Virus record (IMG/VR): IMGVR_UViG_3300025949_000007
Length of the DNA stretch: 41,750 nucleotides
Direction: 5' to 3' (one strand)
Source: a virus
A program made the translations under genes and the position numbers. Of the stretch, positions 1-41,750 are shown piece by piece. Within the stretch, counting starts at the first letter, position 1; each line of letters begins with the position of its first letter. Below the pieces are notes generated by a model. It made no database searches and was not told where the DNA came from. It was given only the letters and a program-made list of their open reading frames with translations.

Positions 1-127
1 CCGCGGCGGCCCCTGTCTGCTCCTTCACCAACTGCGCCGCCTGGTCCAGGATGGACTGTCGGATCTCGTCGGACAGCACGAACGGCGGCGCATCCACCTG
101 GCGCACCTGCATGTTCTTGAAATCCGG
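1..127. repeat. End overlap copy A: bases 1-127 are identical to 41624-41750
   Basis: Compared both ends base by base and found an exact 127-mer. This fits a circular contig opened at an arbitrary point. Confidence 0.95.
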
Positions 128-322
128 GTTGTGGATCGTCAGCGCCGTAGCACCCGTGCCGATCACGCCGTACGGCACATGAGCGGCGGCAAGGTAGAGC
201 TCTGCCAGGTCACCGAGTTCCGCGGCCACCACACTGTCCGGCAGTGCACCGACGCGGCCGATGCGCACGGCGGCCGACAACACGGTCATCAGCCGTTGCT
301 TGCGCTGCTCCTCGTAGTTCAT
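1..322 (-). CDS. Hypothetical protein, N-terminal part of a junction-spanning gene (continues at 41623 down to 41451)
   Basis: ATG at 322 is preceded by GAGGGGA. The frame (MNYEEQRKQRLMTVLSAAVRIG...) stays open to base 1 and is in phase with ORF 41451..41735. It is missing from the ORF track only because it runs off the window edge. Confidence 0.65.
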   Translation of the reverse strand, partial: MNYEEQRKQRLMTVLSAAVRIGRVGALPDSVVAAELGDLAELYLAAAHVPYGVIGTGATALTIHNPDFKNMQVRQVDAPPFVLSDEIRQSILDQAAQLVKEQTGAAA

Positions 323-334
323 GAGTTCCCCTCA

Positions 335-892
335 TCAGTCCAATTTGGACGGATCAACGCCGACCACCTCATAGGTGACGTGCGTTTTGTTCGTCGCCTC
401 CACGCGCACCGGCTTGTTCAGGCCGAGAAGCTTCGCCCGCTCCGCATCGTGCGCTCGGATCTCCTTGCGCGCCTGAACGTTGACGGCATCGTCCAGCAGC
501 GGCTCACCGATGAGAAGGAGCAGCAGTTCGCGTGTCACCTCGCCGCCGTTGCGTTCGATGAGCTCTTCGATCTCCTTGCGCTGGCGAGGTGACACGCCGG
601 CGCGCACTACGTGGCCGTTGTCCACCAACGGATGGTCGGCTTCGGCAATCTCGGTCAGTTGGGCGATGGCGGCATCGTGGCGTTGCACGATGGCTTCCAC
701 TTCCGCCTTTGCATCCATGACGATCTCGTTCTGGATGCGTTCCACTTCTTCGTGGATGTCCTGCCAGCAGTTGCCGTAATTGCCGTTGTAGTATTTGTTC
801 GCAACGGCAGACCAGGGCAAGCCTTTCAGCTTCATGGCGATAGCGGCTGCCTGACGATCCTTGCTTTCCTGCGTCCGACGTCGCCCCGGCAT
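335..892 (-). CDS. Hypothetical DNA-binding protein; possible small terminase subunit
   Basis: 185-aa ORF. It has a basic N-terminus plus an HTH-like segment (AAIAMKLKGLPWSAVANKY), a central coiled-coil-like region, and C-terminal AERAKLLGLNKPVRVE reminiscent of TerS proteins. Function is a guess from memory of the family. Confidence 0.45.
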   Translation of the reverse strand: MPGRRRTQESKDRQAAAIAMKLKGLPWSAVANKYYNGNYGNCWQDIHEEVERIQNEIVMDAKAEVEAIVQRHDAAIAQLTEIAEADHPLVDNGHVVRAGVSPRQRKEIEELIERNGGEVTRELLLLLIGEPLLDDAVNVQARKEIRAHDAERAKLLGLNKPVRVEATNKTHVTYEVVGVDPSKLD

Positions 893-898
893 GGTAAA

Positions 899-1477
899 TC
901 AGCCCCGGTTCTTGAGAGCAGATGCTTGCGCCTCCGACGGCGTTTCCATCGGCACGCCGGCCGCCTTCACCAGCGCGAGGAATTCGCGCACGTTCATACG
1001 CGCCAACCGATCGCCATGTCCGCGGAAGTAGTCCGGCATGATGTCGTCCCATCGTGCCGCGGTTCCCGTCGGCAAATTGACGTGGTGAGCGCAGATAGCC
1101 AACGACGCCACCAGCCGCACTGGCAGCCAAGCGAACCAGCCGTCCACCTCCGCGCATCCGATGCGCTTCTCGATGATGACGGCGAACGGCAGTCCGGCTG
1201 CCAGTGCCTGGTCGTTGGCCGCTTCCCAGATGTCGGCCAGCTTCTTCCCGGGCACGAACTGGTCAGCCCCGCGCTGGTGCCCCTTGGCCTGCACCAGGAA
1301 CGGCACGCCGGCGAAGTCCCCCTCGTCGCCGGACTCCGTGTGCCTGTTGCGCCAGCCAGTGCGCACGAGCCGTTTGGATGCCGGCCAGTACTGGCGCAGG
1401 AAGCGGGCAACGCGCTGCTCCGTCTCGCGACCGGAGTACCGGTTGCTCGCTCCCTGGCTCTTCACCCGCGCCGTCAC
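899..1477 (-). CDS. Putative PD-(D/E)XK-type endonuclease / Holliday-junction-resolvase-like protein
   Basis: 192-aa ORF whose GTG start overlaps the upstream stop (GTGA). GRETEQRVARFL ... GDEGDFAGVPFLVQAKG fits a D-x(n)-(E/Q)-x-K nuclease core. Confidence 0.45.
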   Translation of the reverse strand: MTARVKSQGASNRYSGRETEQRVARFLRQYWPASKRLVRTGWRNRHTESGDEGDFAGVPFLVQAKGHQRGADQFVPGKKLADIWEAANDQALAAGLPFAVIIEKRIGCAEVDGWFAWLPVRLVASLAICAHHVNLPTGTAARWDDIMPDYFRGHGDRLARMNVREFLALVKAAGVPMETPSEAQASALKNRG

Positions 1478-2337
1478 AGTCCCTCGATCGCGAACGGGTT
1501 GACCTCGTCGACGACGGCCGGCGCCGCGTCCAGCGCGTCGAACACGTCGGCGATGGCGTCCGCCTGCTGCGCCGGCACATCGTCGGCCGGCGTAACCGCC
1601 TGCACGGCGCTGCCCTTCGGTGCGGCCTTGCGGCGACGCTTGGGCGCGGCCACGACGGCGTCAGCAGTCTTGGCCACCGCGGCCACGTTCTCCTCGCGAG
1701 TCGGCAGTGCCACCTCCGCGGCGGCCAGCGCCGACAGCTCAGCGTTGCCGGCCGTGCCGTTGTCGGCCGCTTCCTGCGCCGCCCGGCGCCCCTGCTCCTG
1801 GGCGGGCGAGAGTCCTATTGCGGCGTCCGGGTCGGCGGCGATCGCATCGTTGACGGCCGCCTCCGTCGCGAGCTGCGCCGCGGCGACCGACTCCGGCGTC
1901 AGCGTGACGGCGTCTCGTGCCAACAACTCCGCGCGCTGCGCCCGCAGCATCGGCAGCGCCAGGTTGAACCGCGCGCCCGGCGTGAAACCGAACGACGCCA
2001 TGAAGGTCAACTCCTCGTCGACCGCCTCGCCGTAGCGCACGCCGTCGGTGTAGGCGTAGACGCCGTCGCGGGCGACCAGCCATCCCTCCGTCGCCGCGGG
2101 CGCCCACAGACCCAGCTCCGCCAGCACGGACGACGCCAGCGCCGTCGACCACTCCGGCAGCACGGCCAGCACGCACGGTGGCGTGAAGTCGGTGCCGACG
2201 GTCAGCTTGGCCGACCCGTCGGTGGAGTCCACTCGCAGACTGGCCGTGTAGCTCATGCCGGCGTCGGGCCGCCCGTCGTTCTTGTTCGCCGGATTGAACG
2301 CGACGTCGATCACGGCACCGCGGATGGTCAGCTTCAT
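1474..2337 (-). CDS. Hypothetical protein with SSB-like architecture (folded N-domain, Ala/Pro-rich linker, acidic NPF tip)
   Basis: 287-aa ORF with high GC3. The N-terminal ~130 aa look beta-rich, followed by a long low-complexity A/P/E linker. The C-terminus is DALDAAPAVVDEVNPFAIEGL. Confidence 0.6.
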   Translation of the reverse strand: MKLTIRGAVIDVAFNPANKNDGRPDAGMSYTASLRVDSTDGSAKLTVGTDFTPPCVLAVLPEWSTALASSVLAELGLWAPAATEGWLVARDGVYAYTDGVRYGEAVDEELTFMASFGFTPGARFNLALPMLRAQRAELLARDAVTLTPESVAAAQLATEAAVNDAIAADPDAAIGLSPAQEQGRRAAQEAADNGTAGNAELSALAAAEVALPTREENVAAVAKTADAVVAAPKRRRKAAPKGSAVQAVTPADDVPAQQADAIADVFDALDAAPAVVDEVNPFAIEGL

Positions 2338-3542: not shown

Positions 3543-3700
3543 GCAGCGGGGCACTAGGGTCTGCCCCAGACTGCCCCACGATCTTGGGGGCAGTCATTTT
3601 CCCAGCTCAAAGGGGTTAAGACGATCGGTCTGCCCTCCGACTGCCCCCCTGCCCCCATGATCATCTGGGGCACCCCCTTTTTCATGATCAACTGGGGCAG
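3540..3700. repeat. Cluster of CTGCCCC / GGGGCAG heptamers (candidate iterons)
   Basis: Perfect copies lie at 3540-3546(rc), 3561-3567, 3571-3577, 3587-3593(rc), 3641-3647, 3649-3655 and 3694-3700(rc). One-mismatch copies lie at 3548-3554, 3630-3636 and 3667-3673. There is also a near-direct repeat CATGATCA(T/A)CTGGGGCA at 3656 and 3683. Confidence 0.6.
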
Positions 3701-5726
3701 TACTCTTCATACCTCTATTCCGACTTTCGGACGAATCATCGTGTCCACCATTAGGACTAGCATCTATGTACTCAGAGTGAACGGCCATACACTCTTTGAC
3801 GTGTTTCTGGAGATCTGCCAACCAGCGCTTGCTGCGCACCCGGAACGCGATCTCCGGATGCCGTTCCGCCAGCCAGCCGCCCAGCGCACGCTGCGACAGG
3901 CCACGCGCCTCCACGTCGACGCTCACCAGGTGGCAGGCGTGCGCCACGCTGGCCCAGACCACCTCGCCCGGCGTCTCCTTGACTTCCGACAGGGTCAAAG
4001 ACGTCTCCGGCTCCCCGTCGGCATCCACGGTGCCGGTCAACGTCACAGCGGCGGCCAGCACGATCTCCGGATGCAGCTCACTGTCCTTCGACTTCGCGTG
4101 CCGCAGGATGCGGTCACAGTCCAGCCCGGGTGACTGCTCGGTCGGCTCCCGCCAGATGGTCCATGCTTCGTCCGCGTCGTCGGTCAGCGACGACGACCCA
4201 CGCGCCCGCAGACCCTCGTGTCCCGTGTGGTGCACCAGCAGCACCGTGGCGCCGCCGCTGGTCAGCCTGCGGGCCGCGGCCATCACCACGGACATGTCAC
4301 CGGAGTCGTTCTCATTGAGCCCTGACGCCGACTGGTGCACGGTGTCGATGACCACCTGCACCACACCCAGCGTTCCCGCCAGCTCCGCCAGCTCCGCCTG
4401 ACCAGCCGAGTCGCGGAACTGCACGGCCCTGGGCAGCAGGAGGAAGTCCTCCGGCACGTCGTCCAGTCCCCGCGCCCGCGTCCAGGCCAGCGCCCGCTTC
4501 CGCACGCCGTTGGCGCCTTCGGCGGCCACGTACAGCACCGGACCGGACCGCTTGACCGCGTGCCCCATCCAGTCCAGTCCGGTGGCCACCGACAGCGCCC
4601 AGTCCAGCGCGACGAACGATTTGTACGATTGGTTCATACCGGTCAAGAGGGCCAGACTGCCCTGCCCCAGCACGCCCGCGATCAACGGCCGGGGCGCGGC
4701 CATGCCCCGAAGCTGGCTACCGCGAAGTAGCTGGTCGGCCAGTGTCTGCCCCGTTGCCCCAGTCTGCCCCGGGGCATCCGGGGCGGCGTCGAACGGGTTG
4801 GCGTGCGCGTCCAGGATCCGCGCCCGGTCGCCCGCCTTGACCGCATTCGCCCAGGAGTCGTCGAAGCCCCGCCGGGCGTGCGCCCAGTCCTTGACCGGCA
4901 CCGCCGAGGTGTGAAGCGCCTCGCGGCAGCGTTCCCAGAGCCACTCTTTGACGCCCAGCGCCTCGAACTTGCCCAGCGACCGGGCCGCCGCGATCAGCGC
5001 CGTGTACTTGCCGTCGGGGGCGCACGCGGCCAGCCGAGCGATGACGTGCCGGCAGTAGGTCAGCGCCTGGTCGGGCGTGAACACGCCGCTGTGCTCCGTC
5101 GGCGCGGCGAACGGATCGTCCGGCATGACCGCCGACGCTGGCGCCCCCGCGGGGGCGCCCACTGCGGCCACCACGACGTCGGGCACCGGCGAGAGGCGGT
5201 CGGCCGCCACGATGGCCCCGACTGCGGTGTAGGCCTGCTCCGGCGCGTTGACCAGCCACGCCCCCGGCGCGAAGGCCAGGTCGTTGACCGCCCCGCGCGT
5301 GTCCACCTTGGGCAGCCGCCCCGCGGAGTTGCCCAGCGCCACGCCGTTGGGTCTGCGCCGGAAGTAGAACTGCCAGCCGCCTGACCGGGTGCGCACCTGC
5401 AAAGCTCCGCGCGGCAGGTCGCCCCAACTGCGCTCGCCCACAGGGTCGCCGTCGAGGCCGACGTCCAGGTCCACCACCTCGACGCCGCTGGCGTGCACGT
5501 CCACGGCGAACGAGCGACGCGGGTCGTCCACCCACCATGCCCGGATCTGGTCCGGATCGGTGCTGGAGCGCAGCCGCGCGCCGGCGCGGTCGTACGGAAA
5601 GGTGCACTGCTTGTCGCCGTCGGGCTTGAGCTCCAGCACCACCGGCAACAGCGCGTATCCAGCCGCTGCCAGCTCCAGCGCCACCGACAGGCAGCGGCTG
5701 GCCGGCGTCACCTCAAGCGCCGTCAC
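3594..5726 (-). CDS. Bifunctional DNA primase-polymerase (prim-pol N-domain) fused to a RepA/DnaB-like RecA-fold NTPase (AAA_25-like)
   Basis: GTG at 5726 overlaps the upstream stop (GTGA). The N-domain (LLPV...VVDLD...VRTRSGGWQFYF...VDTRG) is typical of prim-pol. The central part has a Walker-A-like LLTGMNQSYKS, and VVIDTV...LLVHHTG has a RecA-like fold. Confidence 0.75.
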   Translation of the reverse strand: MTALEVTPASRCLSVALELAAAGYALLPVVLELKPDGDKQCTFPYDRAGARLRSSTDPDQIRAWWVDDPRRSFAVDVHASGVEVVDLDVGLDGDPVGERSWGDLPRGALQVRTRSGGWQFYFRRRPNGVALGNSAGRLPKVDTRGAVNDLAFAPGAWLVNAPEQAYTAVGAIVAADRLSPVPDVVVAAVGAPAGAPASAVMPDDPFAAPTEHSGVFTPDQALTYCRHVIARLAACAPDGKYTALIAAARSLGKFEALGVKEWLWERCREALHTSAVPVKDWAHARRGFDDSWANAVKAGDRARILDAHANPFDAAPDAPGQTGATGQTLADQLLRGSQLRGMAAPRPLIAGVLGQGSLALLTGMNQSYKSFVALDWALSVATGLDWMGHAVKRSGPVLYVAAEGANGVRKRALAWTRARGLDDVPEDFLLLPRAVQFRDSAGQAELAELAGTLGVVQVVIDTVHQSASGLNENDSGDMSVVMAAARRLTSGGATVLLVHHTGHEGLRARGSSSLTDDADEAWTIWREPTEQSPGLDCDRILRHAKSKDSELHPEIVLAAAVTLTGTVDADGEPETSLTLSEVKETPGEVVWASVAHACHLVSVDVEARGLSQRALGGWLAERHPEIAFRVRSKRWLADLQKHVKECMAVHSEYIDASPNGGHDDSSESRNRGMKSTAPVDHEKGGAPDDHGGRGAVGGQTDRLNPFELGK

Positions 5727-6097
5727 GCGACAGCCGTCCGGCGGTAGTCGACGATGCGCGCCAGCTGGCCGAAGGGTTGCTGGAGCACCCGAAAGGCGAT
5801 CACGTCGCCCACCCGCACGGTGTGCTGCCACCCGTCGTCGACGTGCACCAGGGCGTGCGCCCGCTTCTCGTCGACCACCAGCAGGAGCACGCCCCAGGGA
5901 TCGTCGACGTGGTCCAGCGCGTACACCTGGGCGACGAACAGGCCGTTGCTCCAGGTCGTCTCGATCTCCGCCAGGTCACAGCCGCGCGTGCGCAACAACG
6001 ACAGGTGACCAAGCAGGGCGACCGCGGGCAGCGGATCCGGTTGTGCGGCCGGCGTCGGCCCGTTAGCCTGGGTCACGTTCAGGTCACATCCTCTCAT
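5723..6097 (-). CDS. Hypothetical protein (start uncertain: ATG 6097 has no SD; GTG 6073 has GAGGA upstream)
   Basis: 124-aa ORF whose stop overlaps the primase start. GC3 is high in the C-terminal two-thirds. Confidence 0.55.
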   Translation of the reverse strand: MRGCDLNVTQANGPTPAAQPDPLPAVALLGHLSLLRTRGCDLAEIETTWSNGLFVAQVYALDHVDDPWGVLLLVVDEKRAHALVHVDDGWQHTVRVGDVIAFRVLQQPFGQLARIVDYRRTAVA

Positions 6098-9118: not shown

Positions 9119-9405
9119 CCAGTCATCGACGCAGAGGCAGCGCCAGGGCCAGACAGCGACGCAAGCGCGCGGAGGTACACCAGGCGTGGCAGCGCGACAC
9201 GGGGCCATTGGTGATGTGCACGGTCTGTCGACGGCCAGCGTGGCACACTCGCGCGGAGGCACGCTCGGTCATGAAACGCATCGTGGCGCAGCCGGACTTC
9301 GTGCCGCTGGACAACCACGAGCCGCGAACCGTGCAGTGTGAAGGGTCGACTGTCTGGCACTGGCGCATGGTGCCCAACTGGATTGATGAACAGGAGTCGG
9401 CGTGA
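9115..9405 (+). CDS. Hypothetical basic protein (96 aa) with a CxxC motif
   Basis: GTGA overlap with the upstream stop. Arg-rich N-terminus, then MCTVCRRPAWH. Confidence 0.55.
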   Translation: MTSHRRRGSARARQRRKRAEVHQAWQRDTGPLVMCTVCRRPAWHTRAEARSVMKRIVAQPDFVPLDNHEPRTVQCEGSTVWHWRMVPNWIDEQESA

Positions 9406-11090
9406 CCGAGGAGTCGCAAGTGCTGCCACTGCGGGACTATCAGGTCTCCGGCATCACGACGTTGTACGGCCGTTGGGACTCCGGCGTGCGTCGTCCGGCG
9501 CTGGTGCTGCCCACCGGTGGCGGTAAAACGGTCATGTTCGGCCACATCACCGCCGGGTTCCTCGACGACAACCCGCGCCGGCGCGCGCTCATCCTGGCTC
9601 ATCGTGACGAACTGGTGACACAGGCGGCAAAGAAGGTCAAGTCGATCGCCCCACACCTACCGGTGGGCATCGTCAAGGCGGAGCGAAACGACACCTGGGC
9701 CAAGGTGGTGGTGGCCTCGGTGCAGAGCCTGCGTTCTCCGGCCCGGTTGGCCGCCCTACGGGACGTAGGCCTCATCGTGGTGGATGAGTGTCACCATGCC
9801 ACCGCACAGACGTACCGGACGATCCTGGAGCACTACGGCGCCTTCGACGACGGCAGCGACACTCGCGCGGTAGGCGTGACGGCAACACTGGCCCGATCCG
9901 ACCGGCAGCAGCTGGGCACGGTGTGGGAGTCCGCCGATGTCGTGGAAACCATCCTCGGCCTGGTGCGCCGCGGCTACCTGCTCGATCCGATCGGCAAGCG
10001 CATAGAGGTGCCGGACCTCCGCTTGGGCGACGTGCGCCGGAGTCGAGGCGATTACCAGGACGGCGACCTGGGCCGCGCCATGGTGGCCAGCCTGGCGCCG
10101 GAGATCGTGGCGAAGGCCTACGCGGAGCACGGAGGCGACGATTGCGGCGTGGCGTTCTGGCCGACGGTCGAAGCGGCCATGGTCGGCGCGGAGGCCATGA
10201 ACGACTACGGCATTCGCGCGGAGGTCATTCACGGCAAGACGCCGTTGGACCAGCGCCGTGACATCCTGCGCAGGGCCGACGAGGGCAAAGTGCAAGTCCT
10301 GTCCAACTGCATGGTGCTGACCGAGGGATTCGACTGGCCGCGCGCCCGGGTGTGCGTCATCGCCCGTCCGACCGAGTCCGCCTCGCTCTATCAACAGATG
10401 GTTGGCCGTGTGCTGCGGCCGTTCCCGGGGCAGAAGCAAGCACTAATCCTGGACGTGGTGGGCGCGTCGTATCAGCACAGCCTGGCCAGTCTGGTTGACC
10501 TGTCCGACAAGCCGGTGAAGATCAAAGACGGCGAGTCGCTGAAGGAGGCGGCCGAACGGACCGCGCGGGAGCTGAACGACCGCGAGGAGATAGAGCTCTA
10601 TCGCGGCGAGACCGTGGCGGCCATCTTCGACCCGCTGGGCCGCAGCGTAAACCGCGTATGGGCCACCAGTCGGGGCGGTACACGATTCCTGGCCGTGTCG
10701 GATCGGTACATCTTCCTGGTGCCCAGCACTGCGTCGGACGCGCTCCCCGGTACCTGGGATGTCGCGTGGTGCGCCGAAGATCGTCCTATCGACGGCAAGT
10801 ATGGTGCATTCCTGGAGCGGGGGATTGACCTCGGCTACGCCGTCGCCTGGGCGGAGTCGCACGTAGACGAGTTGACCGCAGGAACTCGCGAAGGCAACGC
10901 CCGCTCGTTCACTTCGAAGAAGTCGGCATGGCGCAAGGGTGCGCCGTCGTCGGCACAGATCAGGCTGGCCGCCCGCTTCGGCATCGCACCGGCCGACGGC
11001 ATGACCGCCGGTGATCTCTCGACACTGATCGACAGTGCGAAGGCATCGCTGACGATCGACACGTTCGTCAACCGCATCATGGGAAGGTAA
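9402..11090 (+). CDS. SF2 DEXH-box DNA helicase (type III restriction Res-subunit-like fold) with an uncharacterised ~190-aa C-terminal domain
   Basis: Motif I LPTGGGKT, motif II VVDECHHA, motif III TATL, motif VI QQMVGRVLR. GTGA overlap with the upstream gene. Confidence 0.85.
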   Translation: MTEESQVLPLRDYQVSGITTLYGRWDSGVRRPALVLPTGGGKTVMFGHITAGFLDDNPRRRALILAHRDELVTQAAKKVKSIAPHLPVGIVKAERNDTWAKVVVASVQSLRSPARLAALRDVGLIVVDECHHATAQTYRTILEHYGAFDDGSDTRAVGVTATLARSDRQQLGTVWESADVVETILGLVRRGYLLDPIGKRIEVPDLRLGDVRRSRGDYQDGDLGRAMVASLAPEIVAKAYAEHGGDDCGVAFWPTVEAAMVGAEAMNDYGIRAEVIHGKTPLDQRRDILRRADEGKVQVLSNCMVLTEGFDWPRARVCVIARPTESASLYQQMVGRVLRPFPGQKQALILDVVGASYQHSLASLVDLSDKPVKIKDGESLKEAAERTARELNDREEIELYRGETVAAIFDPLGRSVNRVWATSRGGTRFLAVSDRYIFLVPSTASDALPGTWDVAWCAEDRPIDGKYGAFLERGIDLGYAVAWAESHVDELTAGTREGNARSFTSKKSAWRKGAPSSAQIRLAARFGIAPADGMTAGDLSTLIDSAKASLTIDTFVNRIMGR

Positions 11091-11736: not shown

Positions 11737-12185
11737 TAGAGATCCGGCTTCCCGCACTACCCATGATCGCGAAGAAGACCATGGGTACACAGCTTCCGCC
11801 GGCACCGGACGGCGCGCAGTTGCACTTCATGATCATGGTGACAGGCGCCGGCGTGACCAGTCAGCAGATGGTGGCCATGGTGCTACCGAAGGGCGCAGAA
11901 TATCCCATGGCCGTCACCGTGGAGTGCGTGCAGCAGAACTTTCCGCCACCGCCTCCGCCGGTGACGGACCAACAGCGCCGACGCCGCCTCATCGCCCAGG
12001 TACTCAACCGCGCCCGCGACGCCGGCCGCCTGGGACTCACCACGGACAACCAGGAGAACACCGTACAGGCGCTCATGGAGGCGCTGGACGGCGAGTTCGC
12101 CGATGGGGACGTGTCCGACGTCAACTCCAACGAATACGACCCACGCGATGACGACTGGTCCACCGACAGCCAGAAGGAAGACTGA
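11733..12185 (+). CDS. Hypothetical protein (150 aa) with a poly-Pro run and an acidic tail
   Basis: ATGA overlap with the upstream stop. Trimmed from track ORF 11526..12185, whose N-terminal part is R-rich junk. Confidence 0.6.
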   Translation: MIEIRLPALPMIAKKTMGTQLPPAPDGAQLHFMIMVTGAGVTSQQMVAMVLPKGAEYPMAVTVECVQQNFPPPPPPVTDQQRRRRLIAQVLNRARDAGRLGLTTDNQENTVQALMEALDGEFADGDVSDVNSNEYDPRDDDWSTDSQKED

Positions 12186-13240
12186 TGACCAAGGACCTGC
12201 TGACGGATCCGTTCGCCGCGCCGGCCGAACCAACGCCGGACATCATCAAAAACGGGCGTTACTGGTTGCCGCCGATCAACGACCCGACGGCGAAGCGCGT
12301 CGGCTGGACTAGGGCCACCACGTTGGTGAAGACCGTCTCCGACATGTTCCTGATCGACCGCTATCACCAGCGAGAGATCATGATCGGCCTGGCCAAGCGT
12401 GAAGACCTCTACGACCTGTTGTGCACCACGGACTTCGACGACAAGGACAAGCTGAACAAGCTGGCCCTGGATGTGTTGGAGGCGGCGAAGTCCGACCGCG
12501 GCTACGCCGGCAGCGAGGTGGGGACGGCGTTCCACTCGGCCACGGAGCGACTGGACCGTGGCGAGGCGTCCGGCCTACGGTCGAAGTGGGACGCGAAGCT
12601 CCGCAACTACGAAGAAGCCATGGGGCGTCGAGGTTTCGTCATGATCCCGGAACTGATGGAGCGCCGTGTGGTGTGCGAGCGCTACCAGGTGGCGGGCACC
12701 TTCGATCGCATCGCCCAGAAGGGGCCGGCGCGCGTCAGTATCGGCAACTCTCCGTTGCACATCACCGACCTGAAGACACAGAAGACGTTCTACACCTGGT
12801 GGGAGATCGCCGCACAGCTGGCCATCTACGCCAACGCCGACGCCATGTGGGACGAAGATCAGCACCGGTACGTGTCGATGCCGAAGGTGGACAAGGACGT
12901 CGCCTACGTCACGTGGATGCCCGTGCAGCATCCGGGCGACGATCCGGACGCCGTCGACGTCTACGCCGTCGACATCGCCAAGGGATGGCGTGCGGTGGAC
13001 CTGATCCACCTCGTCCGGAGTTTGCGCAAGGAAGGCGAGAAGTGGGGGACCCTGGTCCCACTTGAGACTCCAGTCTCCGACGAGGAACGGTTCGCCCAGC
13101 GGCTCGCCGACGCCGGCGCGCGGTCGGACCTGACGAAGATCATGCAGGAGATGACGAAGCTCTGGGGCGTCACTGCCGTACCGGTGCAGCTACTCAAGCT
13201 GGGTAAGCAGCGCTGGCAGGAACTGGCGGCGAACGGCTGA
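12185..13240 (+). CDS. RecB/Cas4-like PD-(D/E)XK exonuclease (no Cys cluster)
   Basis: GTFDRI ... ITDLKTQK gives the D ... D-x-K core and AAQLAIYANA gives the QxxxY motif of RecB-family nucleases. The ATG shares one base with the upstream TGA. Confidence 0.7.
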   Translation: MTKDLLTDPFAAPAEPTPDIIKNGRYWLPPINDPTAKRVGWTRATTLVKTVSDMFLIDRYHQREIMIGLAKREDLYDLLCTTDFDDKDKLNKLALDVLEAAKSDRGYAGSEVGTAFHSATERLDRGEASGLRSKWDAKLRNYEEAMGRRGFVMIPELMERRVVCERYQVAGTFDRIAQKGPARVSIGNSPLHITDLKTQKTFYTWWEIAAQLAIYANADAMWDEDQHRYVSMPKVDKDVAYVTWMPVQHPGDDPDAVDVYAVDIAKGWRAVDLIHLVRSLRKEGEKWGTLVPLETPVSDEERFAQRLADAGARSDLTKIMQEMTKLWGVTAVPVQLLKLGKQRWQELAANG

Positions 13241-13974: not shown

Positions 13975-14310
13975 GTGACCACCACCGAGTCGATTGGACC
14001 CGTCTTCAAGAACGTCGCGATGAGTGCCGAGGCCAAGTTGGTCGACACCGTCCCGATGGCGACCGAGGACTACCCCGACCGGGAGTTCCTGCCGGAGAGG
14101 ATCCTCGTCCACTACCACCCCAGCCCGGCGGGCTGGCAGCTGTCCAGCGTGTACATCACGGGCCACGCCGTGCTGAAGTCCGGTGAACTCGGCAAGAGCC
14201 GCCGCTCCGCGTACTTCCGTGTCGCCCTCGGCGGCAGGGTGGACAACCTCGGCGACTGCCCGGTCTGGGCCCGCGAGTTCGCCAACCTGCACTGCCCGAC
14301 GGGAGAGTGA
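13975..14310 (+). CDS. Hypothetical protein (111 aa)
   Basis: GTG start with AAGGGGAG RBS and high GC3. Confidence 0.65.
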   Translation: MTTTESIGPVFKNVAMSAEAKLVDTVPMATEDYPDREFLPERILVHYHPSPAGWQLSSVYITGHAVLKSGELGKSRRSAYFRVALGGRVDNLGDCPVWAREFANLHCPTGE

Positions 14311-14718
14311 TGAGGATGTTCACCACCAAGCACGAGATCACGATCGTGGTCGACGAGGCCGAACTCAGCAGGTACAGCGACGCGCACTTGGCGGCGCTGT
14401 GGCACGTGGCGCAGGCCAACCCGGCCGACGGGTTCGAGAACAAGTGGCCGGGCGAGCTGGCCGCGAAGATCGGCTGGGAGATCATCAGCCGCTGGCTCCG
14501 CAAGACGCCTCCCGAGCTGTACCACCACCAGGCGCACCACTACTGGGCGAAGAACCTCGGGCGCTTCGCGAAGTACGAGCCGGGCGGCCCGTCCGGGACA
14601 GCGGAGTGGGAGGCCGGCACCTGGGTGCTCAAGCCCGAAGTTCTCGCCGCCGCGGCCGAGGGCGGCGGCCAGGACGGCGAGCGCGCCGCGAACACGAAGG
14701 AGACAACCTTTCGGCCCG
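14310..14718 (+). CDS. Hypothetical protein, 5' coding segment (no in-frame stop until 15077)
   Basis: ATGA overlap with the upstream stop. GC3 is high up to about 14705 and then collapses in this frame. See the finding on the composite ORF. Confidence 0.5.
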
Positions 14719-14898
14719 ATGACGGCGCTGTTCGTGACGGTCGACTGCTGCGCCGTCTGCGTGCCGGCCGTCGTCGCCACCATGGACACCAGCGAGATGA
14801 TCACGGTGGAGCTGTCGCTGTCGTCGTGGAACGACGCCGAGGACAACGGCCTGATGGCCCACCAGGACGACGACCGGCCGCACCCGGACGCGCTGTGA
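14719..14898 (+). CDS. Small protein (59 aa, MTALFVTVDCCAVCVPAVVA...) in the +1 frame relative to 14310
   Basis: Near-100% GC3 over 59 codons, with a stop in a TGATG overlap with the next start. It is below the ORF-track length cutoff. The SD (AAGGAG) lies about 17 nt upstream, which is unusually far. Confidence 0.55.
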   Translation: MTALFVTVDCCAVCVPAVVATMDTSEMITVELSLSSWNDAEDNGLMAHQDDDRPHPDAL

Positions 14899-15077
14899 TG
14901 GAGAAGCTGATCGAGACACCGGGTTGGATCATCGCCAACCCGGCCACCTTCCGGCGACTGGCCGCCCGGGTGGCCTCCTTCGAGTTCATCCGGTCCGGCG
15001 TCGCGGTTCCTCGCTGCGCCCACCGTTACAACCCGTTCACCGACAGCTGTCCGAACTGCGAGATGGAAGAAGCCTGA
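14898..15077 (+). CDS. Small protein (59 aa) with C ... CPNC and an NPF motif
   Basis: The ATG shares one base with the upstream TGA, and GC3 recovers in this frame (MEKLIETPGWIIANPATF...). Confidence 0.55.
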   Translation: MEKLIETPGWIIANPATFRRLAARVASFEFIRSGVAVPRCAHRYNPFTDSCPNCEMEEA

Positions 15078-15496: not shown

Positions 15497-16150
15497 ATGA
15501 GTGACAACCCGTTCGACACCGCGGCCCCCGGCCAGTCCGTGCCGGTCGCCGGCCCCTCCGTCGACTCCGGCAACCCCTTCGGCGCGCCGGGCGGCGACCT
15601 GGCCGACCCCTTCGCCGCGCCGGCGCAGGTCGGCGGTGGCGCGTTCTGCCGCCCGCAGGACCTGGTGGGCCGCGTGGTGGCGCTGCGCAAGCTGTCGGAG
15701 AAGATGGAGGAGAACCCCTTCTCCGACAAGACGCCCAAGGACCTACAGAAGGTCTTCTACTGCCACCTGGTCGTGTTCACCGGCGGCATGATCACCACCT
15801 CCGACCGGCGCGAAGACGCGCCGCTGGACGCGCCGCCCGTCGAGGTGGGAGAGCCTATCCTGCTGGTGAAGGACTGGCGGGTGTACAACGTCGGCCTGAT
15901 GAACAAGTTCGGCCGCAACGCCATCATCCGCGGCCGGATCGTCCGCGAGCCGATGGGCAAGCAGGCGAAGGAGACGCTGAACACCTGGCAGAAGGTGGAG
16001 GCGTTCATGAACACGAATCCCTCGCGCGATGTGGTGGACAAGGCGAAGCTGTTCTGGACGCTCATTGACGACCTGACCGACGGGGAGCGTCAGCTGACGC
16101 TGGACTGGTTCCGCGGCGACTCGGTGGACGCCAAGGAATTCCGGGCCTGA
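15497..16150 (+). CDS. Hypothetical protein (217 aa): disordered N-terminus with four (D/N)PF motifs plus a folded C-domain
   Basis: ATG start and high GC3. NPF/DPF lie at aa 4-6, 26-28, 37-39 and 73-75. Confidence 0.7.
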   Translation: MSDNPFDTAAPGQSVPVAGPSVDSGNPFGAPGGDLADPFAAPAQVGGGAFCRPQDLVGRVVALRKLSEKMEENPFSDKTPKDLQKVFYCHLVVFTGGMITTSDRREDAPLDAPPVEVGEPILLVKDWRVYNVGLMNKFGRNAIIRGRIVREPMGKQAKETLNTWQKVEAFMNTNPSRDVVDKAKLFWTLIDDLTDGERQLTLDWFRGDSVDAKEFRA

Positions 16151-16660: not shown

Positions 16661-16807
16661 ATGGGCAACAAGAGCAAACCGAGCGGACCGCAGCAGCCGG
16701 AGCGTAAGGGCGGTAGCGGCACCCGCGACGGCGGCAAGCTGAACAAGTGTCCGGAGTGTCAGGAAGTCCAGGGGCGTCACGCGCCTGGCTGCTCCCGGCG
16801 CGGATGA
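16661..16807 (+). CDS. Small zinc-knuckle-like protein (48 aa, CPEC ... C)
   Basis: ATG with GAGGGGA RBS. Trimmed from track ORF 16418..16807. Confidence 0.55.
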   Translation: MGNKSKPSGPQQPERKGGSGTRDGGKLNKCPECQEVQGRHAPGCSRRG

Positions 16808-17133
16808 TGCCCACCGCGTACGCGAACCGGCGCACCCGAGAACAGTTGCTGGGCCAGCCGTTGACCGCCAAGGAACTGGAGTGCCTGCGCTGGCTGGCGA
16901 CCGGCTTCTCCATGGCGGAGATAGCGAAGGCGGTCAACCTGCGCAGCGAGCACACGGCGAAGTCCCGTCTCAAGCAGGCGTACGCCAAGCTGGGCGCCGA
17001 CAACGCCGCCCACGCCGTCATGCTGGCCGTGCAGGGTGGGTGGCTCAACCCGACCGACGGCAAGCCGATGTTGCCGCCCTATCCGCCGCAGTGGTATTTC
17101 CCGGAAAAGCGGGAGAAGGAGAACGCGCCATGA
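16804..17133 (+). CDS. LuxR/GerE-type helix-turn-helix transcriptional regulator
   Basis: LTAKELECLRWLATGFSMAEIAKAVNLRSEHTAKSRLKQAYAKLG is a typical GerE HTH. ATGA overlap with the upstream stop. Confidence 0.7.
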   Translation: MMPTAYANRRTREQLLGQPLTAKELECLRWLATGFSMAEIAKAVNLRSEHTAKSRLKQAYAKLGADNAAHAVMLAVQGGWLNPTDGKPMLPPYPPQWYFPEKREKENAP

Positions 17134-18567: not shown

Positions 18568-21336
18568 CTAGATCTGGATGTACCGCTGGTCGAACAGCAC
18601 CACGGACTCGCCGACGCCGTGCGTCTTCACCACGCCGTTGACCGACCTCGTCACGGTGAAGGTCTGCGGCGAGCTGGCGCCGGTGATGTTGGTGACGGTC
18701 ATGCGCTCGCCGCCCACCAGGACGTCGAAAGGGAAGTGCGCGGCGTTGGTGGTCCACAGCACGGCCGGCCCGGACGTGGTGGCAACCGACATCGACGTGG
18801 TACCGGTGGTCATGGTGGCGGCCGTGGTGGACGAGTCGGAGTCCAACCGGCTGTCGGAGGCGTCCAGCACGAGCGTGTGGTAGATCCGCTCCGGCACCGT
18901 GACGATGACGATGCGGTGCTTGAACCGGTTGATCGTCTCGGTTACCTGATTGACGGTCTGGTTGGCCGTGTCGTACAACCCAAGCTTGGTTAGATTGGTG
19001 TACTGCACGCGACTGCCGGGTGCGAGGTTGAGTACACCGATCGACAACGCAGCGTTGGCCACCACGGCGCGCGATTCGCGGGCGAACTGGACTGCCGGGT
19101 ATCGCTCTGCGTCCACGGTCCCCTTGGCCAACAGCCATCCGGCGACCCAGGCAAGCTGATAGTCGTACTGTGGATTGACCGTCTTTGACTGGGAATAGGT
19201 GCCGGCCCCGCCGTTCGCCGGTGACGCCGTGGAGAGTGGTCCCGTTGTCTGCATTAGGCGGATGACCCCTCCACCTTGGCGAGTGACCGTGATGTCGTTG
19301 TGCAGCCGTTGGTCATCGGAGACCGGTTGGAACGGCGGTTGAAACTCGTGTGCGGCGTAGCTGGCCGTCACGATGACGTCCGCATTGCGCAGTGCGGAGG
19401 AACGGACGAACAGCAACCCCACACAGTTGCGAGCCCCCGTCAACATTCCCATGTCCACATCGGCGCACTGGCTCAGCAGGTTGACCAGAGTGTCGACGGC
19501 CTGTGGTCCCATCGGTTGCGCGGTGGACGCGAACTTGCCGATCATCAGACTGAGGTCGACACCTTCTTCGCCGCACAGCCGCTGGATGCGCGCAACGGCA
19601 TCCTCGCCAACGTAGGCGTTAAGCTGGTTGGACTGGGCGAATAGATCCATGATCGTGGTGTTGAACATGACGTGCCCGAAGGTGGACGCGCTCATCACGC
19701 CATCGCCGTTGAGAATGATGTACGTGGCGACGCCCAACGTGTAGCCGGTCGCCGTGCCGGTGAGGTACGAACCCGTGGTAGCGCCGACCTGAAGCGCGCT
19801 GTACTTCCAGTTGATGTTGCCACCGGACTGAGTGAAGTTCATATCCACACGGACAAGCTTGTCGTCGATGCCGAAGACGCCGTCGTTGACCACCACGGCG
19901 GATCCGAACTGGTCGTAGCCGACCAGGCGGAGATCACCGCCGGTCAGATATACCAACTGCCACGTCAGGATGGAGCCGGTCATACTCCATTCCATGATCG
20001 GGTCGCCGTTGGACATGTCCCCGGCGGGAATGTGCAGCAGGAAACGCACCTGAAGCGAACCCGTGTCGGCATATCCCGGAAGTGACGTGGCCCAGATGGA
20101 TTTATTCATCGTCGGCAACGGAGCAGAGCAGGCGAAGTCGCTGAAACTCGCCCACTTCGGCGTGGTGCTGTACGGAATGAGCGGCGCGGTCGGCACGATG
20201 ACATTGCTGGCACTGACCGAGTTCGAGCCATCCTCGCACGGCCAGTAGTACACCGGCGCGGGCGTCGCCGCCATCGTGCCACGGTAGAGCGGGGAACGTA
20301 GCGGAGGCGCGCCGGAGCTCAACCGCCGCAAGGGATCGCTGGCGGTGATCTCGATGTAGCGATCACTGGTGGTGACATCCTGCGACGCTGGCCACTCCGG
20401 AATCTCACCGCTGAACCGAACCGAGCGAACCTCGAAGTTGTCATAAGTGAACACGATCGGCAGCGTGTTGGTGTTGCCGGTTTGCACCGCCGACCGTACG
20501 CCGACCACGCCGGTGGCGTTGACGTTCGCGTGGATCGTCGTGTCTGTGCCGACCACCAGCCACGCATACGGTTCCACGCCGGACACCGCCCACATCTTCA
20601 TCCGCATGGTATTGCCTTCCATGCGAGCTCTGACGCGGTACTGAGTGTTGGCGGCATAGGTGATGCCGCTCGCCGTCGGGCCGGCGATGACCGTTCCGTC
20701 CACGTGCACCACCGACAGCGAGATCGACCCGCCGACGGCCACGGACACCTTGGCTATCCAGTACTGCCCGGTCGCCGGATCGGCCCGAAAGATCAGGTTG
20801 CACGGTTCGACCGGTGCGCCGGTGATCGAGGCCAGTGCCATCGACCAGGTGCACTGAATGTCGACGTCGGCATAGCTTCCCGCGCCGTCGATCGTGGTCT
20901 GTCGGTAGGCCGTGGTTGCCGGCACGGAGTGCAGGCCGGCGCTCCCGTTGACCGTGACGTCGGTGGCCGCCACCGTGCCACCCTGGCCGAACCACGACCA
21001 TGCCGCGCCGGAGTCCGACGTCGTCCACGTCGAGGAACTGGCGCGAGTGAAGGTGTCGTAGGCGGTCCGCAAGGTGAGTTGGAAGGGCGTGTTGCGGCCC
21101 AGCTGGCCGTAGTAGGCGCCGACGGGATTGCGGCTGGAGTAGTTGCCGGAGCGGTTGTCCAGCTGGAAAGAGCACTGCGACGTCTGCGCCACGGAGCTGG
21201 ACGACTCGTCAGCCTGACCGCGGGTGATCGTGGTGTCCTCCCGCTGGTAGACGTCGCCGGTCACGTCCGTCCATGTGCCACCCAACGCCAGCTCGTACTT
21301 GACGTCCAGGCCGATGGTCGGGAATGTGGCCACCAC
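18568..21336 (-). CDS. Large minor tail protein, distal-tail-protein (Sipho_tail/Dit)-like with inserted domains
   Basis: 922 aa with GAGAGGGGA RBS. The N-terminus ITRGQADESS...CSFQLDNRSGNYSSRNPVGAYYGQLGRNTPFQLTL matches the pattern recalled for siphovirus Dit-type proteins. The C-terminal part has ERYPAVQF. Confidence 0.55.
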   Translation of the reverse strand: MVATFPTIGLDVKYELALGGTWTDVTGDVYQREDTTITRGQADESSSSVAQTSQCSFQLDNRSGNYSSRNPVGAYYGQLGRNTPFQLTLRTAYDTFTRASSSTWTTSDSGAAWSWFGQGGTVAATDVTVNGSAGLHSVPATTAYRQTTIDGAGSYADVDIQCTWSMALASITGAPVEPCNLIFRADPATGQYWIAKVSVAVGGSISLSVVHVDGTVIAGPTASGITYAANTQYRVRARMEGNTMRMKMWAVSGVEPYAWLVVGTDTTIHANVNATGVVGVRSAVQTGNTNTLPIVFTYDNFEVRSVRFSGEIPEWPASQDVTTSDRYIEITASDPLRRLSSGAPPLRSPLYRGTMAATPAPVYYWPCEDGSNSVSASNVIVPTAPLIPYSTTPKWASFSDFACSAPLPTMNKSIWATSLPGYADTGSLQVRFLLHIPAGDMSNGDPIMEWSMTGSILTWQLVYLTGGDLRLVGYDQFGSAVVVNDGVFGIDDKLVRVDMNFTQSGGNINWKYSALQVGATTGSYLTGTATGYTLGVATYIILNGDGVMSASTFGHVMFNTTIMDLFAQSNQLNAYVGEDAVARIQRLCGEEGVDLSLMIGKFASTAQPMGPQAVDTLVNLLSQCADVDMGMLTGARNCVGLLFVRSSALRNADVIVTASYAAHEFQPPFQPVSDDQRLHNDITVTRQGGGVIRLMQTTGPLSTASPANGGAGTYSQSKTVNPQYDYQLAWVAGWLLAKGTVDAERYPAVQFARESRAVVANAALSIGVLNLAPGSRVQYTNLTKLGLYDTANQTVNQVTETINRFKHRIVIVTVPERIYHTLVLDASDSRLDSDSSTTAATMTTGTTSMSVATTSGPAVLWTTNAAHFPFDVLVGGERMTVTNITGASSPQTFTVTRSVNGVVKTHGVGESVVLFDQRYIQI

Positions 21337-34840: not shown

Positions 34841-36148
34841 TCACTCTCCCTGCACCGCGCGCCGGATGTCGGCGAGGTGGTCTTGTGTCAGCCCCGGAAG
34901 ACTGTCGTCCACCGGAGTCGTCTGCGGTTCGGCCACGTTGGTGGCCGCCCAGGCGACGGCCGCCCGAATGTCGTCGCCCAGACTGGTCAGCGTCGGCTCC
35001 TGTGGCGCCGACGCGAACTCGTCACGCAACTCGTCGGTGAGTCCGGCCAGGAAGCCGGTCAGGCTGGCGTCTTCGTTCGAGTCGTTCTGGCCGTCGTCGC
35101 TGGTCACGGCGTCGTTCAAGGCCTGCGCCACGGCGGCCGGTCGCCGTCGGTCGCGCGCCACCAGCGTGATGGCCGAGGAGTCCACGCTGACGCGCTCCTT
35201 CGGCGGCGCCACCTTGTCGGCCAGTCCGGCATCCACCGCCTCTTGCGCGTTGTACCACTTCTCCGCGCGCATGATCTCCCGCCACTCCTTCGGCGTGCCA
35301 CCGGCGCGTTCGGCGTAGAACGTGGCAATGTTGTCGGAGGTACGATCGAGGATTTCGGCCATCTTGGCCATGTCCGCGGCGTTGCCGATCTGGACGGCGT
35401 GCGCGTCGTGGATCATCACTTCGGAACCCCGCCCCATGATGATCTCGTCGCCAGCCATCATGATCACCGATGCGATGGAGGCGGCCAGTCCGGTCACGGT
35501 CATCACGATGCGGCCCGGATGGTTGGCCAGTCCGTTGTAAATTCCGATGCCGTCGAAGACGTCGCCGCCGATGGAGTTCAGCGAGACGTTCAGCGTCTTG
35601 GCGTTCGCGACGTCGGGCGCAGCCAATGCACGGGCGAACACGCCGGAGTCTACGTCCCAACCGATTTCGCCGGTGATCATGACGTCCACGACGTCAGGCT
35701 CCGACGCGCGCGCCTGGATGGAGTACCACGGACGGCTGCCGGTCGTCGCCTTCGCGGTGGCCTTCAGTTGCTCACGGCGACGCGCCAGGAACTGCTGAAC
35801 GGCGTTGTCCGCGCTGTCGCCCGACTTCTTGTTGTGGTCGGCGATGTGGGCCTGGAGATGGGCACGGACGCCCGCCTTGTCTCCGTCCGGAATGGACGAA
35901 TTCTCCAGCCGCGACAATCCGTTGTGGCACGCGGGAATGTTGGCCGGGCCGCCCTTGGTCCGGTGGTGCGGGAATTTGTAGTCTTCCTTGACGTCCGAGC
36001 CTGCCTCATCTTCCCAGGCAAAGCAGTAGTGCAGCGTCGCGGCGTTGTTCGGCATGGCCGCTTCGGCGGCCGGACCGTCCCAGGCGGAATCCTCCGTGGC
36101 CGTGTGGTGCACGCCGATCGCGGCGGCGCGGATGAGGGTACTTCCCAC
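34841..36148 (-). CDS. ClpP-like (S14) prohead maturation protease with N- and C-terminal extra domains
   Basis: INSIGGDV...TGLAASIASVIMMAGD...MIHDAH gives ClpP-type Ser/His motifs. GTG 36148 lies 9 nt after GGAAGG. The alternative GTG 36157 overlaps the upstream stop. Confidence 0.8.
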   Translation of the reverse strand: MGSTLIRAAAIGVHHTATEDSAWDGPAAEAAMPNNAATLHYCFAWEDEAGSDVKEDYKFPHHRTKGGPANIPACHNGLSRLENSSIPDGDKAGVRAHLQAHIADHNKKSGDSADNAVQQFLARRREQLKATAKATTGSRPWYSIQARASEPDVVDVMITGEIGWDVDSGVFARALAAPDVANAKTLNVSLNSIGGDVFDGIGIYNGLANHPGRIVMTVTGLAASIASVIMMAGDEIIMGRGSEVMIHDAHAVQIGNAADMAKMAEILDRTSDNIATFYAERAGGTPKEWREIMRAEKWYNAQEAVDAGLADKVAPPKERVSVDSSAITLVARDRRRPAAVAQALNDAVTSDDGQNDSNEDASLTGFLAGLTDELRDEFASAPQEPTLTSLGDDIRAAVAWAATNVAEPQTTPVDDSLPGLTQDHLADIRRAVQGE

Positions 36149-41198: not shown

Positions 41199-41454
41199 TG
41201 CGCTCCCACGTTCTGCCGTCTTCGTTGACGTGATTACCGACATGCCCCAACGTGCGAACGCACCGCGAGGGGAAACGCGAGTCGCCACAGATGAGCGGCT
41301 GCATCACCTCGTCACTATCACCCATCGCCGCGATCACCGGCGCAGCCAGCGCGTCCACGATAGAATCGAGCCGCGCCGAGTCGTGCCCGTGCTCCGTGTG
41401 CACGCCGACGTAGAACCCCATGCGGATGAGGCCACGCACCAGGTCGGCGTTCAC
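41191..41454 (-). CDS. Hypothetical protein (87 aa)
   Basis: GTG 41454 overlaps the upstream stop (GTGA). Trimmed from track ORF 41191..41523. Confidence 0.55.
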   Translation of the reverse strand: MNADLVRGLIRMGFYVGVHTEHGHDSARLDSIVDALAAPVIAAMGDSDEVMQPLICGDSRFPSRCVRTLGHVGNHVNEDGRTWERND

Positions 41455-41750
41455 AGGTCGATCGCCTCGCCTTCGGCCATCCCGTCGGTCACCCGCGGGA
41501 ACAGAGCGCCGCACACGTCGCACTGATGGTCGCTGCCGCCAGGGCCGTCAGCGTGCCCTGGCGTCTTGTTGCAGATGTGGGCGTGACCGCCGACGGGATC
41601 AACCAACTCCACGCCGCACGTCTCCGCGGCGGCCCCTGTCTGCTCCTTCACCAACTGCGCCGCCTGGTCCAGGATGGACTGTCGGATCTCGTCGGACAGC
41701 ACGAACGGCGGCGCATCCACCTGGCGCACCTGCATGTTCTTGAAATCCGG
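41451..41750 (-). CDS. C-terminal part of the junction-spanning gene (same gene as 1..322)
   Basis: The frame of ORF 41451..41735 stays open to the window end. Bases 41624-41750 duplicate 1-127. The C-terminus has HAHICNKTPGH ... HQCDVC. Confidence 0.65.
   Translation of the reverse strand, partial: PDFKNMQVRQVDAPPFVLSDEIRQSILDQAAQLVKEQTGAAAETCGVELVDPVGGHAHICNKTPGHADGPGGSDHQCDVCGALFPRVTDGMAEGEAIDL
41624..41750. repeat. End overlap copy B (identical to 1-127)
   Basis: Exact match read base by base. Confidence 0.95.

Follow-up and report, generated by a model that had tools for sequence, protein, structure and literature searches.

The virus record IMGVR_UViG_3300025949_000007, a stretch of 41,750 bases referred to here as the window, encodes at 15497..16150 a protein of 217 amino acids (aa) whose disordered N-terminal tail carries three copies of a short peptide of the type Asp/Asn-Pro-Phe, (D/N)PF. 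The original prediction, made from this sequence, was that six proteins of the replication and recombination arm share the peptide and dock with it on one hub. We found that the peptide is a conserved and enriched short linear motif, located in disorder and common to four early proteins: the 217-aa protein, a primase-helicase, an exonuclease and a 287-aa protein. These four carriers were well supported, but two of the six predicted proteins were doubtful.

The motif in the early proteins

The carrier genes and the motif copies are listed below.

15497..16150, plus strand: 217-aa protein; three motif copies in a disordered N-terminal tail (aa 1-48), followed by a beta-rich globular core
15506-15529, plus strand: NPFDTAAP, aa 4-11 of the 217-aa protein
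15572-15589, plus strand: NPFGAP, aa 26-31 of the 217-aa protein
15605-15622, plus strand: DPFAAP, aa 37-42 of the 217-aa protein
15713-15721, plus strand: NPF of ENPFS, aa 73-75 of the 217-aa protein
12185..13240, plus strand: RecB/Cas4-type exonuclease (phrog_466), early arm
12206-12223, plus strand: DPFAAP, aa 8-13 of the exonuclease
3594..5726, minus strand: primase-helicase with PrimPol and AAA_25 domains, early arm
5100-5117, minus strand: DPFAAP of the primase-helicase
4779-4799, minus strand: NPFDAAP, linker before the AAA_25 domain of the primase-helicase
3597-3617, minus strand: NPFELGK, C-terminus of the primase-helicase
1474..2337, minus strand: 287-aa protein; a conserved N-domain (1-136) is followed by a hypervariable linker, an RRRR patch, an acidic stretch and an NPF tail at the C-terminus
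1477-1500, minus strand: NPFAIEGL, C-terminus of the 287-aa protein
15030-15038, plus strand: NPF of RYNPFTD, in the 59-aa Cys-rich open reading frame (ORF) 14898..15077

DPFAAP was present in the primase-helicase, the exonuclease and the 217-aa protein at the positions predicted, and so were all other predicted peptides; the span of NPFDAAP is 4779-4799, the earlier coordinates (4791-4799) having covered the NPF codons alone. The phage consensus is (D/N)-P-(F/W)-(A/G/S)-x(0-1)-(A/T)-P. Representative peptides are MSDNPFDTAAPGQ, GDLADPFAAPAQV and DEVNPFAIEGL from the phage, and GDDPWGSAPASG from SSB, the protein that binds single-stranded DNA. The copies are located in disorder or between Pfam domains. 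It had been suggested that all of them are terminal or lie in low-complexity segments, but ENPFS is in a loop of the folded core and RYNPFTD lies between Cys pairs.

Enrichment was assessed by shuffling the residues inside each protein, with an early arm of 5,164 aa and a late arm of 7,208 aa. The early-arm proteins contain 10 copies of [DN]PF against a mean of 0.67 expected, a number not reached in any of the shuffles (0/20,000), and the pattern [DN]PF.{0,2}AP occurs five times compared to 0.014 expected. DPFAAP is the sole hexapeptide common to three proteins, and any such sharing was seen in 12 of 2,000 shuffled proteomes. The claim that the structural proteins lack the motif apart from TerL also held, the single [DN]PF of the late arm being the buried RNPFV of TerL, which relatives keep as a part of their fold. 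Synonymous codons differ among the copies (GAC or GAT, CCC or CCG), and their flanking DNA is unrelated, which rules out a DNA-level repeat; the repeat thus lies at the level of the peptide, and selection acts on the peptide itself.

The 217-aa protein was modelled with AlphaFold2 (AF2). Residues 9-48 have a predicted local distance difference test score (pLDDT) below 50, and the core, which is beta-rich with C-terminal helices, scores 85-92. The family comprises 47 proteins, 21 close homologues (down to 47 % identity) and 26 remote ones obtained by profile search of 1.84 billion representatives, and the motif is present in all of them (21/21 close and 26/26 remote), with 2-5 copies each. All 22 sequences formed by the 217-aa protein and its close homologues have N4, P5, F6, A10, P11 and G12, and P38, F39, A40 and P42 are likewise invariant among the close homologues, while the tail otherwise varies in length and sequence. 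The middle copy NPFGAP is less well kept, being DPFGGP or SEFASP in homologues, with F28 alone invariant. Nearly all remote relatives start with MT(D/N)PF and have 2-5 repeats of (D/N)PF(A/G/S)xP. The motif is found inside the first 12 residues in 40 of the 47 family members, and throughout the family the last copy stands 14-20 residues (median 15) ahead of the conserved DLxGR at the start of the core, with linkers of about 10-170 residues between copies. Trp replaces Phe at homologous positions in DS6A and in the relatives P0070, P0072 and P0080, which start with DPW or NPW. In two members the motif tail is C-terminal instead: that of DS6A gp72 ends in ...AGGDPWGGSNEAPPF and that of YDN12 gp42 in ...EDPFAVKA, and the YDN12 primase ends in ...PDPFAVEDLGYD.

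No fold match for the core was obtained from the PDB, either with Foldseek (best E 0.39) or with a profile against PDB sequences, and hmmscan of the 217-aa protein against Pfam and PHROG, the SSB Pfam included, gave no hit. A tblastn search with the protein against 50,697 phage records returned nothing. Structural matches of the core in BFVD were uncharacterised proteins of Arthrobacter, Mycobacterium and Corynebacterium phages; a likeness to DUF669 / Xp10 37L was very weak (probability ~0.1) and was not relied on. When the 217-aa alignment was compared with four members of phrog_870 using hhalign, 56 columns including the motif were aligned with a probability of 77 % and an E value of 2e-5, DPFAAP pairing with DPFSAP of phrog_870, and the 217-aa protein is probably a distant relative of this family, with which it also agrees in architecture and genome position. 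Proteins of phrog_870 occur in about 200 sequenced actinophages and always adjoin the phrog_466 exonuclease, in a conserved block of (Pol I), PrimPol-helicase, SF2 helicase, exonuclease and phrog_870. The members examined for the N-terminal pattern (Puppers gp29, Phlyer gp48, Cooper gp46, Hedgerow gp49, TPA2 gp56 and Sour gp48) have (N/S)PF in the first eight residues and GDPF(S/A/G)xP just before the core.

The Gordonia phage Puppers provided an independent replicate. Its early proteins contain eight [DN]P[FW] compared to 1.47 expected, which was reached in one of 5,000 shuffles, and four of them start with M(A/T)(T)NPF: gp29 (phrog_870), gp31 (the phrog_466 exonuclease), gp48 (phrog_636) and gp57, the last with a second NPF 11 residues downstream. 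Chance or composition as the origin of the motif is ruled out by the shuffles of the window and of Puppers. A canonical SSB was not found in Puppers; Puppers and Phlyer, which are related phages, do encode Pol I.

The four carriers keep the motif in their homologues while the surrounding linkers drift. The primase-helicase has the domains PF09250 (1.7e-17) and PF13481 (1.9e-32), and its start is most likely at 5726 (710 aa) and not at 5831, since P0022 is an identical 710-aa gene call. The copy in the linker after PrimPol is kept as D-x-P-F-(A/G/S)-x-P in 10/10 homologues, down to 36 % identity; its Phe and final Pro are invariant, with one DEVFARP variant, and the rest of the linker cannot be aligned. 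The copy in the linker before the helicase is kept as [DN]PF in seven of the ten homologues, and six of the ten have [DN]-x-F-(A/G)-x-P at the C-terminus, the C-terminal variants being DPFG, DPFARPAS, NPFAPPAR, NSFAPPAF and DGFAPPAP. The exonuclease (351 aa) matches phrog_466 over residues 12-327 (E 7e-51), and its tblastn hits are actinophage Cas4-family exonucleases. Its N-terminus, KDLLTDPFAAPAEPTPD, is identical in three divergent relatives (L001, L003 and L004) and reads DPFAVP in L012, and the Puppers homologue starts with MTNPFMTP.

In the 287-aa protein N280, P281 and F282 are invariant in all 29 aligned sequences (29/29), and the tail follows the consensus (D/E)(D/E)xNPF(A/M)I(E/G)G(L/V)-COOH after a hypervariable linker. 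The N-domain has a pLDDT of 85-94 in the AF2 model and the linker is helical and disordered; neither a PDB fold match (best E 0.13) nor a Pfam or PHROG hit was obtained. The family also has an invariant RRRR patch and a DVFDxLD block ahead of the NPF tail, and the gene adjoins that of a RusA-like resolvase.

Two of the copies are probably structural. ENPFS is located between the strands 60-72 and 83-93 of the AF2 model, in a beta-hairpin loop of a block with a pLDDT of 78, and is absent in P0020 and P0021, the two most distant of the close homologues, and it is doubtful for docking. RYNPFTD is probably part of a zinc ribbon, with a structural rather than a docking role, as Cys pairs stand on both sides of it (CAHRYNPFTDSCPNC); it is kept as CVHGCNPFTDSCAGC in the relative L004 and was not seen in L001 or L003. 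The reading frame spanning 14307-15077 on the plus strand, to which this ORF belongs, probably consists of three genes (14307..14722, 14719..14898 and 14898..15077). Four further candidate peptides were dropped: ADEPFPVDMDP in a 335-aa protein and QQPFGQ in ORF 5723..6097, which are not conserved in relatives, and DDPWG in ORF 5723..6097 (5894-5902, minus strand) and DEFASAP close to the C-terminal end of the head protease/scaffold protein (35003-35023, minus strand), neither of which has an obvious copy in neighbouring homologues.

Relation to the tails of SSB

The original prediction compared the motif with the acidic tip of bacterial SSB. A relation to SSB tails was indeed found, but the best match is to an internal element of the tail and not to the DDDIPF/DEPPF tip. 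The tip consists of an acidic run followed by (I/L/P)-P-F, with Phe as the last residue. The window copies have D/N-P-F, often after Asp or Glu (DDPF, DEVNPF), although the acidic residues in front usually number only one or two. None of them ends its protein, the C-terminal copies continuing with ELGK or AIEGL. A terminal Phe is present only in three homologues of the 217-aa protein: DS6A gp72, with the SSB-type end ...GDPWGGSNEAPPF, P0081, ending in ...DPPF, and P0083, ending in ...SPF.

The SSBs of Mycobacterium tuberculosis, M. leprae and M. smegmatis (PDB sequences) end in ...(D/E)DPWGSAP(A/T)SGSF..D(D/E)EPPF. DPWGSAP is invariant in 80/80 species of the Mycobacteriaceae, whose tails also keep a third block, SGSF, and the preceding Gly-rich linker varies in length and sequence. 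The form DDPW(G/A)(S/A)xP is present in SSBs of Nocardia, Gordonia, Rhodococcus, Arthrobacter, Streptomyces and Miniimonas, where it lies 12-25 residues upstream of the (S/D)EPPF tip. The canonical SSBs of one Rhodococcus phage and one Streptomyces phage retain DDPWG(S/A)AP. Firmicute SSBs carry a version with Phe, NPF or DPF, as in Listeria and in Bacillus (...SSNPFGQ...), and an internal D/N-P-W/F-(G/A/S) was present in every Gram-positive SSB tail examined. In Actinomycetota and Bacillota taken together, the element stands 12-25 residues ahead of a tip of the form ...PPF or ...LPF. The phage motif follows the pattern of this element, (D/N)-P-(W/F)-(G/A/S)-x(1-2)-P, and like it lies in disordered, low-complexity sequence and is conserved amid varying flanks. 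Judged by sequence, the phage motif has the same pattern as this internal, phylum-spanning element of SSB tails.

It has been reported that PriA of Staphylococcus aureus binds full-length SsbA and not a 15-mer peptide of its tip (PMC5531588). This 15-mer starts immediately after the DPFA element of SsbA, and the result fits a binding determinant upstream of the tip, although DPF is not discussed in that study. We found no paper on a DPF, NPF or DPW motif in phage replication proteins, with most subscription journals outside the search.

Genome context and candidate receptors

The window has a GC content of 67 % and is a circular or terminally redundant phage genome with a unit of 41,623 bp, because bases 1-127 are an exact repeat of 41624-41750; the gene at 2..322 is the continuation of that at 41451..41735. 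Besides the carriers described above, it contains the following.

9402..11090, early arm: SF2 (ResIII/Helicase_C) helicase
Early arm, beside many ORFs without a family: RusA-like resolvase and LuxR/GerE-type regulator
~18.1-41.3 kb, minus strand: late arm with TerL, portal, head protease, major capsid, adaptor, major tail and tail proteins

In the late arm, the 922-aa protein at 18568-21336 (minus strand) matches phrog_5313 (E 4e-158), has a phosphodiesterase-like region and is probably a tail-associated enzyme. The products of 335-892 (minus strand) and 16747-17133 (plus strand) both match phrog_645 (labelled 'RNase E'), the latter additionally matching GerE/LuxR and a phage sigma-factor family, and they may be a related regulator pair. 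Near-identical phages were not found by megablast, and the nearest sequenced relatives are actinobacteriophages with less than 33 % protein identity. Based on these relatives, and on the Rv2525c-like lysins encoded by syntenic metagenomic relatives, the host is presumed to be an actinobacterium. Apart from the PrimPol domain, neither a DNA polymerase nor a clamp nor a canonical SSB was detected in the window. A tblastn search of the window with the SSB core of M. tuberculosis gave zero matches, while the positive control was picked up.

We suggest, with a probability of about 0.55, that the peptides represent repeated copies of a docking motif that mimics the SSB tail. In each of the four carriers (primase-helicase, exonuclease, 287-aa protein and, most of all, the 217-aa protein) the peptide would then occupy a site that normally receives the SSB tail, and the replication and recombination enzymes of the phage would be gathered at SSB-coated single-stranded DNA (ssDNA) or on replisome or repair proteins of the host. 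The 217-aa protein, encoded beside the exonuclease, would be a likely multivalent organiser or a substitute for SSB. Our tentative candidate for the receptor is a protein or complex of the host that reads the SSB tail, putatively an SSB-interacting protein or the SSB-ssDNA complex itself. A host-encoded reader is favoured because no polymerase, clamp or SSB was detected in the phage, because the motif copies a feature of the host and because some family members end exactly like host SSB.

Several points weigh against this interpretation. A free C-terminal carboxylate defines recognition in the known pockets for the SSB tip, and the window copies have none, so these pockets cannot be assumed. 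The core of the 217-aa protein had no OB-fold (oligonucleotide/oligosaccharide-binding fold) match in Foldseek, its likeness to SSB being drawn from architecture and genome position. In cluster B mycobacteriophages the motif is carried by the phrog_870 protein only, which self-interaction would explain equally well, and the fixed spacing of the core-proximal copy from the fold could mean a structural role. The phage is metagenomic, with a host presumed from its relatives, and prophage relatives were absent from 185,579 representative genomes. No paper on an internal DPW or DPF element of SSB tails was found either, with the same limit on the journals covered.

The main rival is a phage-encoded receptor for the same docking motif, with the peptide assembling the phage's own replication-recombination machine; we consider this unlikely, though well above the alternatives that follow. 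In one variant the 217-aa/phrog_870 protein would use its N-terminal tail to contact the core of an adjacent copy, so that coating would be cooperative as known for T4 gp32, and in another the partner of this tail would be the SF2 helicase, the exonuclease or the hexameric helicase. In the present lineage the other enzymes would then have acquired the same tag. The module of PrimPol-helicase, SF2 helicase, exonuclease and phrog_870 is shared by the cluster B mycobacteriophages, TPA2, Sour, Puppers and the present lineage, and the constant neighbourhood of phrog_870 and exonuclease, the restriction of the motif to phrog_870 in cluster B and the 14-20 aa between the last motif and the core all agree with an internal partner. 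So does the Streptomyces phage YDN12, in which the primase and the phrog_870 protein both end with DPFAV..., and there is a precedent in T7, where the tails of gp2.5 and gp4 bind gp5. However, the AF2 tail was not confidently docked on its own core (residues 9-48, pLDDT <50), although a monomer model is weak evidence in this respect. Moreover, the match to a host SSB-tail element in two phyla would be needless for a code internal to the phage, and exact SSB-type ends are found in some family members.

The remaining explanations rank lower. A structural boundary or hinge, in which D-P-F-x-x-P caps or anchors the following domain or stiffens linkers, would account for the constant distance at which the core-proximal copy stands in the 217-aa family and for the first copy of the primase-helicase, which lies 6-8 residues ahead of a conserved segment. 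It is improbable given that copies at the extreme N- and C-termini are kept far from any fold by linkers of 10-170 aa, the copy number ranges from 2 to 5, the pLDDT is low at the motif and the disordered tails of SSB share the element. Still less probable is a degradation or turnover tag for a Clp-type protease or adaptor that would time the life of the early proteins. The terminal placement of the motif is degron-like, and in some strains of Streptococcus mutans the SSB tip LPF is a degron that depends on ClpXP (PMC5143411), but in that work GFP-DPF was constructed by substitution of LPF, and recognition by ClpX was lost with any replacement of these three residues. Internal linker copies and multicopy arrays are also atypical of degrons, and for Actinobacteria the proposal rests on analogy with S. 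mutans. Binding to the beta-sliding clamp (DnaN), whose binding motifs are distributed in a similar way over the ends and linkers of several proteins of replication and repair, was the least probable of all and was rejected: the motif does not fit Q-L-x-L-(F/L), having a single hydrophobic residue, no copy has a Gln or paired hydrophobics, and the mycobacterial clamp uses canonical motifs, e.g. QLSLLDD of PolI in a crystal structure (bioRxiv 10.64898/2026.09.19.751633).

An extended form of the proposed SSB mimicry is possible but doubtful. D/N-P-(F/W) could be a second docking element of Gram-positive SSB tails besides the tip, on which actinophages would have built the multivalent 217-aa/phrog_870 family as a replacement for SSB and with which they would have tagged the primase-helicase, the exonuclease and other early proteins. 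These proteins would thereby plug into or take over the SSB network of the host, possibly by co-condensing with SSB on ssDNA.

SSB tails are an organising hub of bacterial genome maintenance, and it is debated whether partners read the tail beyond its last residues, e.g. the PxxP motifs of the E. coli linker. An aromatic element that is invariant in the SSB tails of two phyla and copied by phages onto several enzymes provides a concrete, mutable target, and the relevant hosts and phages can be cultured (M. smegmatis or Gordonia; Phlyer and Puppers), Puppers being a tractable system for the motif. The motif is also the first functional handle on phrog_870, a widespread family of about 200 actinophages, and suggests a route by which phages without a polymerase recruit the machinery of the host. 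For mycobacteria, the element could bear on recombineering design and on phage-derived inhibitors of replication.

Comparison with known systems

In phage T7 the SSB gp2.5 and the primase-helicase gp4 share acidic C-terminal tails ending in Phe, which bind the polymerase gp5. As in T7, a putatively SSB-like protein and a primase-helicase share here one motif with a key Phe, namely DPFAAP on the 217-aa protein and on the primase-helicase. In contrast to T7, no polymerase gene was detected in the window and thus no receptor of the T7 type, the motifs are not confined to C-termini, and the exonuclease and a fourth protein are also carriers.

The eukaryotic NPF and DPF motifs read by EH domains and the AP2 appendage have identical core tripeptides and form multivalent arrays in disorder. 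Human POLE2 has been reported to read NPF on replication factors (PMC12808100). The flanks of the phage motif differ (A/G-x-P), and the likeness is most likely due to convergence. The clamp-binding motif QL(S/D)LF is likewise short and located at termini and in linkers of many replication and repair proteins, but its sequence is unrelated, and actinobacterial clamps use the canonical motif.

The SSB tip (...DDDIPF, ...DDEPPF, ...DDDLPF) is a shared docking peptide for replication, recombination and repair. It resembles the phage motif in having one or more acidic residues followed by Pro and an aromatic residue at the end of a disordered tail, and an SSB-type end, ...PPF or ...SPF, recurs exactly in some homologues of the 217-aa protein. 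It differs in that the copies in the window stand at the N-terminus, inside the protein or 4-5 residues before its end, and in that the peptide is here found on several phage enzymes, while the enzymes of the SSB system provide the pocket. With the internal element of SSB tails, as defined here, the phage motif shares (D/N)-P-(W/F)-(G/A/S)-x-x-P after an acidic residue, the location in low-complexity disorder and the invariance amid a varying linker. SSB has one or two copies of this element near the C-terminal tip of an OB-fold protein, whereas the phage has up to 3-5 copies, mostly N-terminal and on unrelated proteins.

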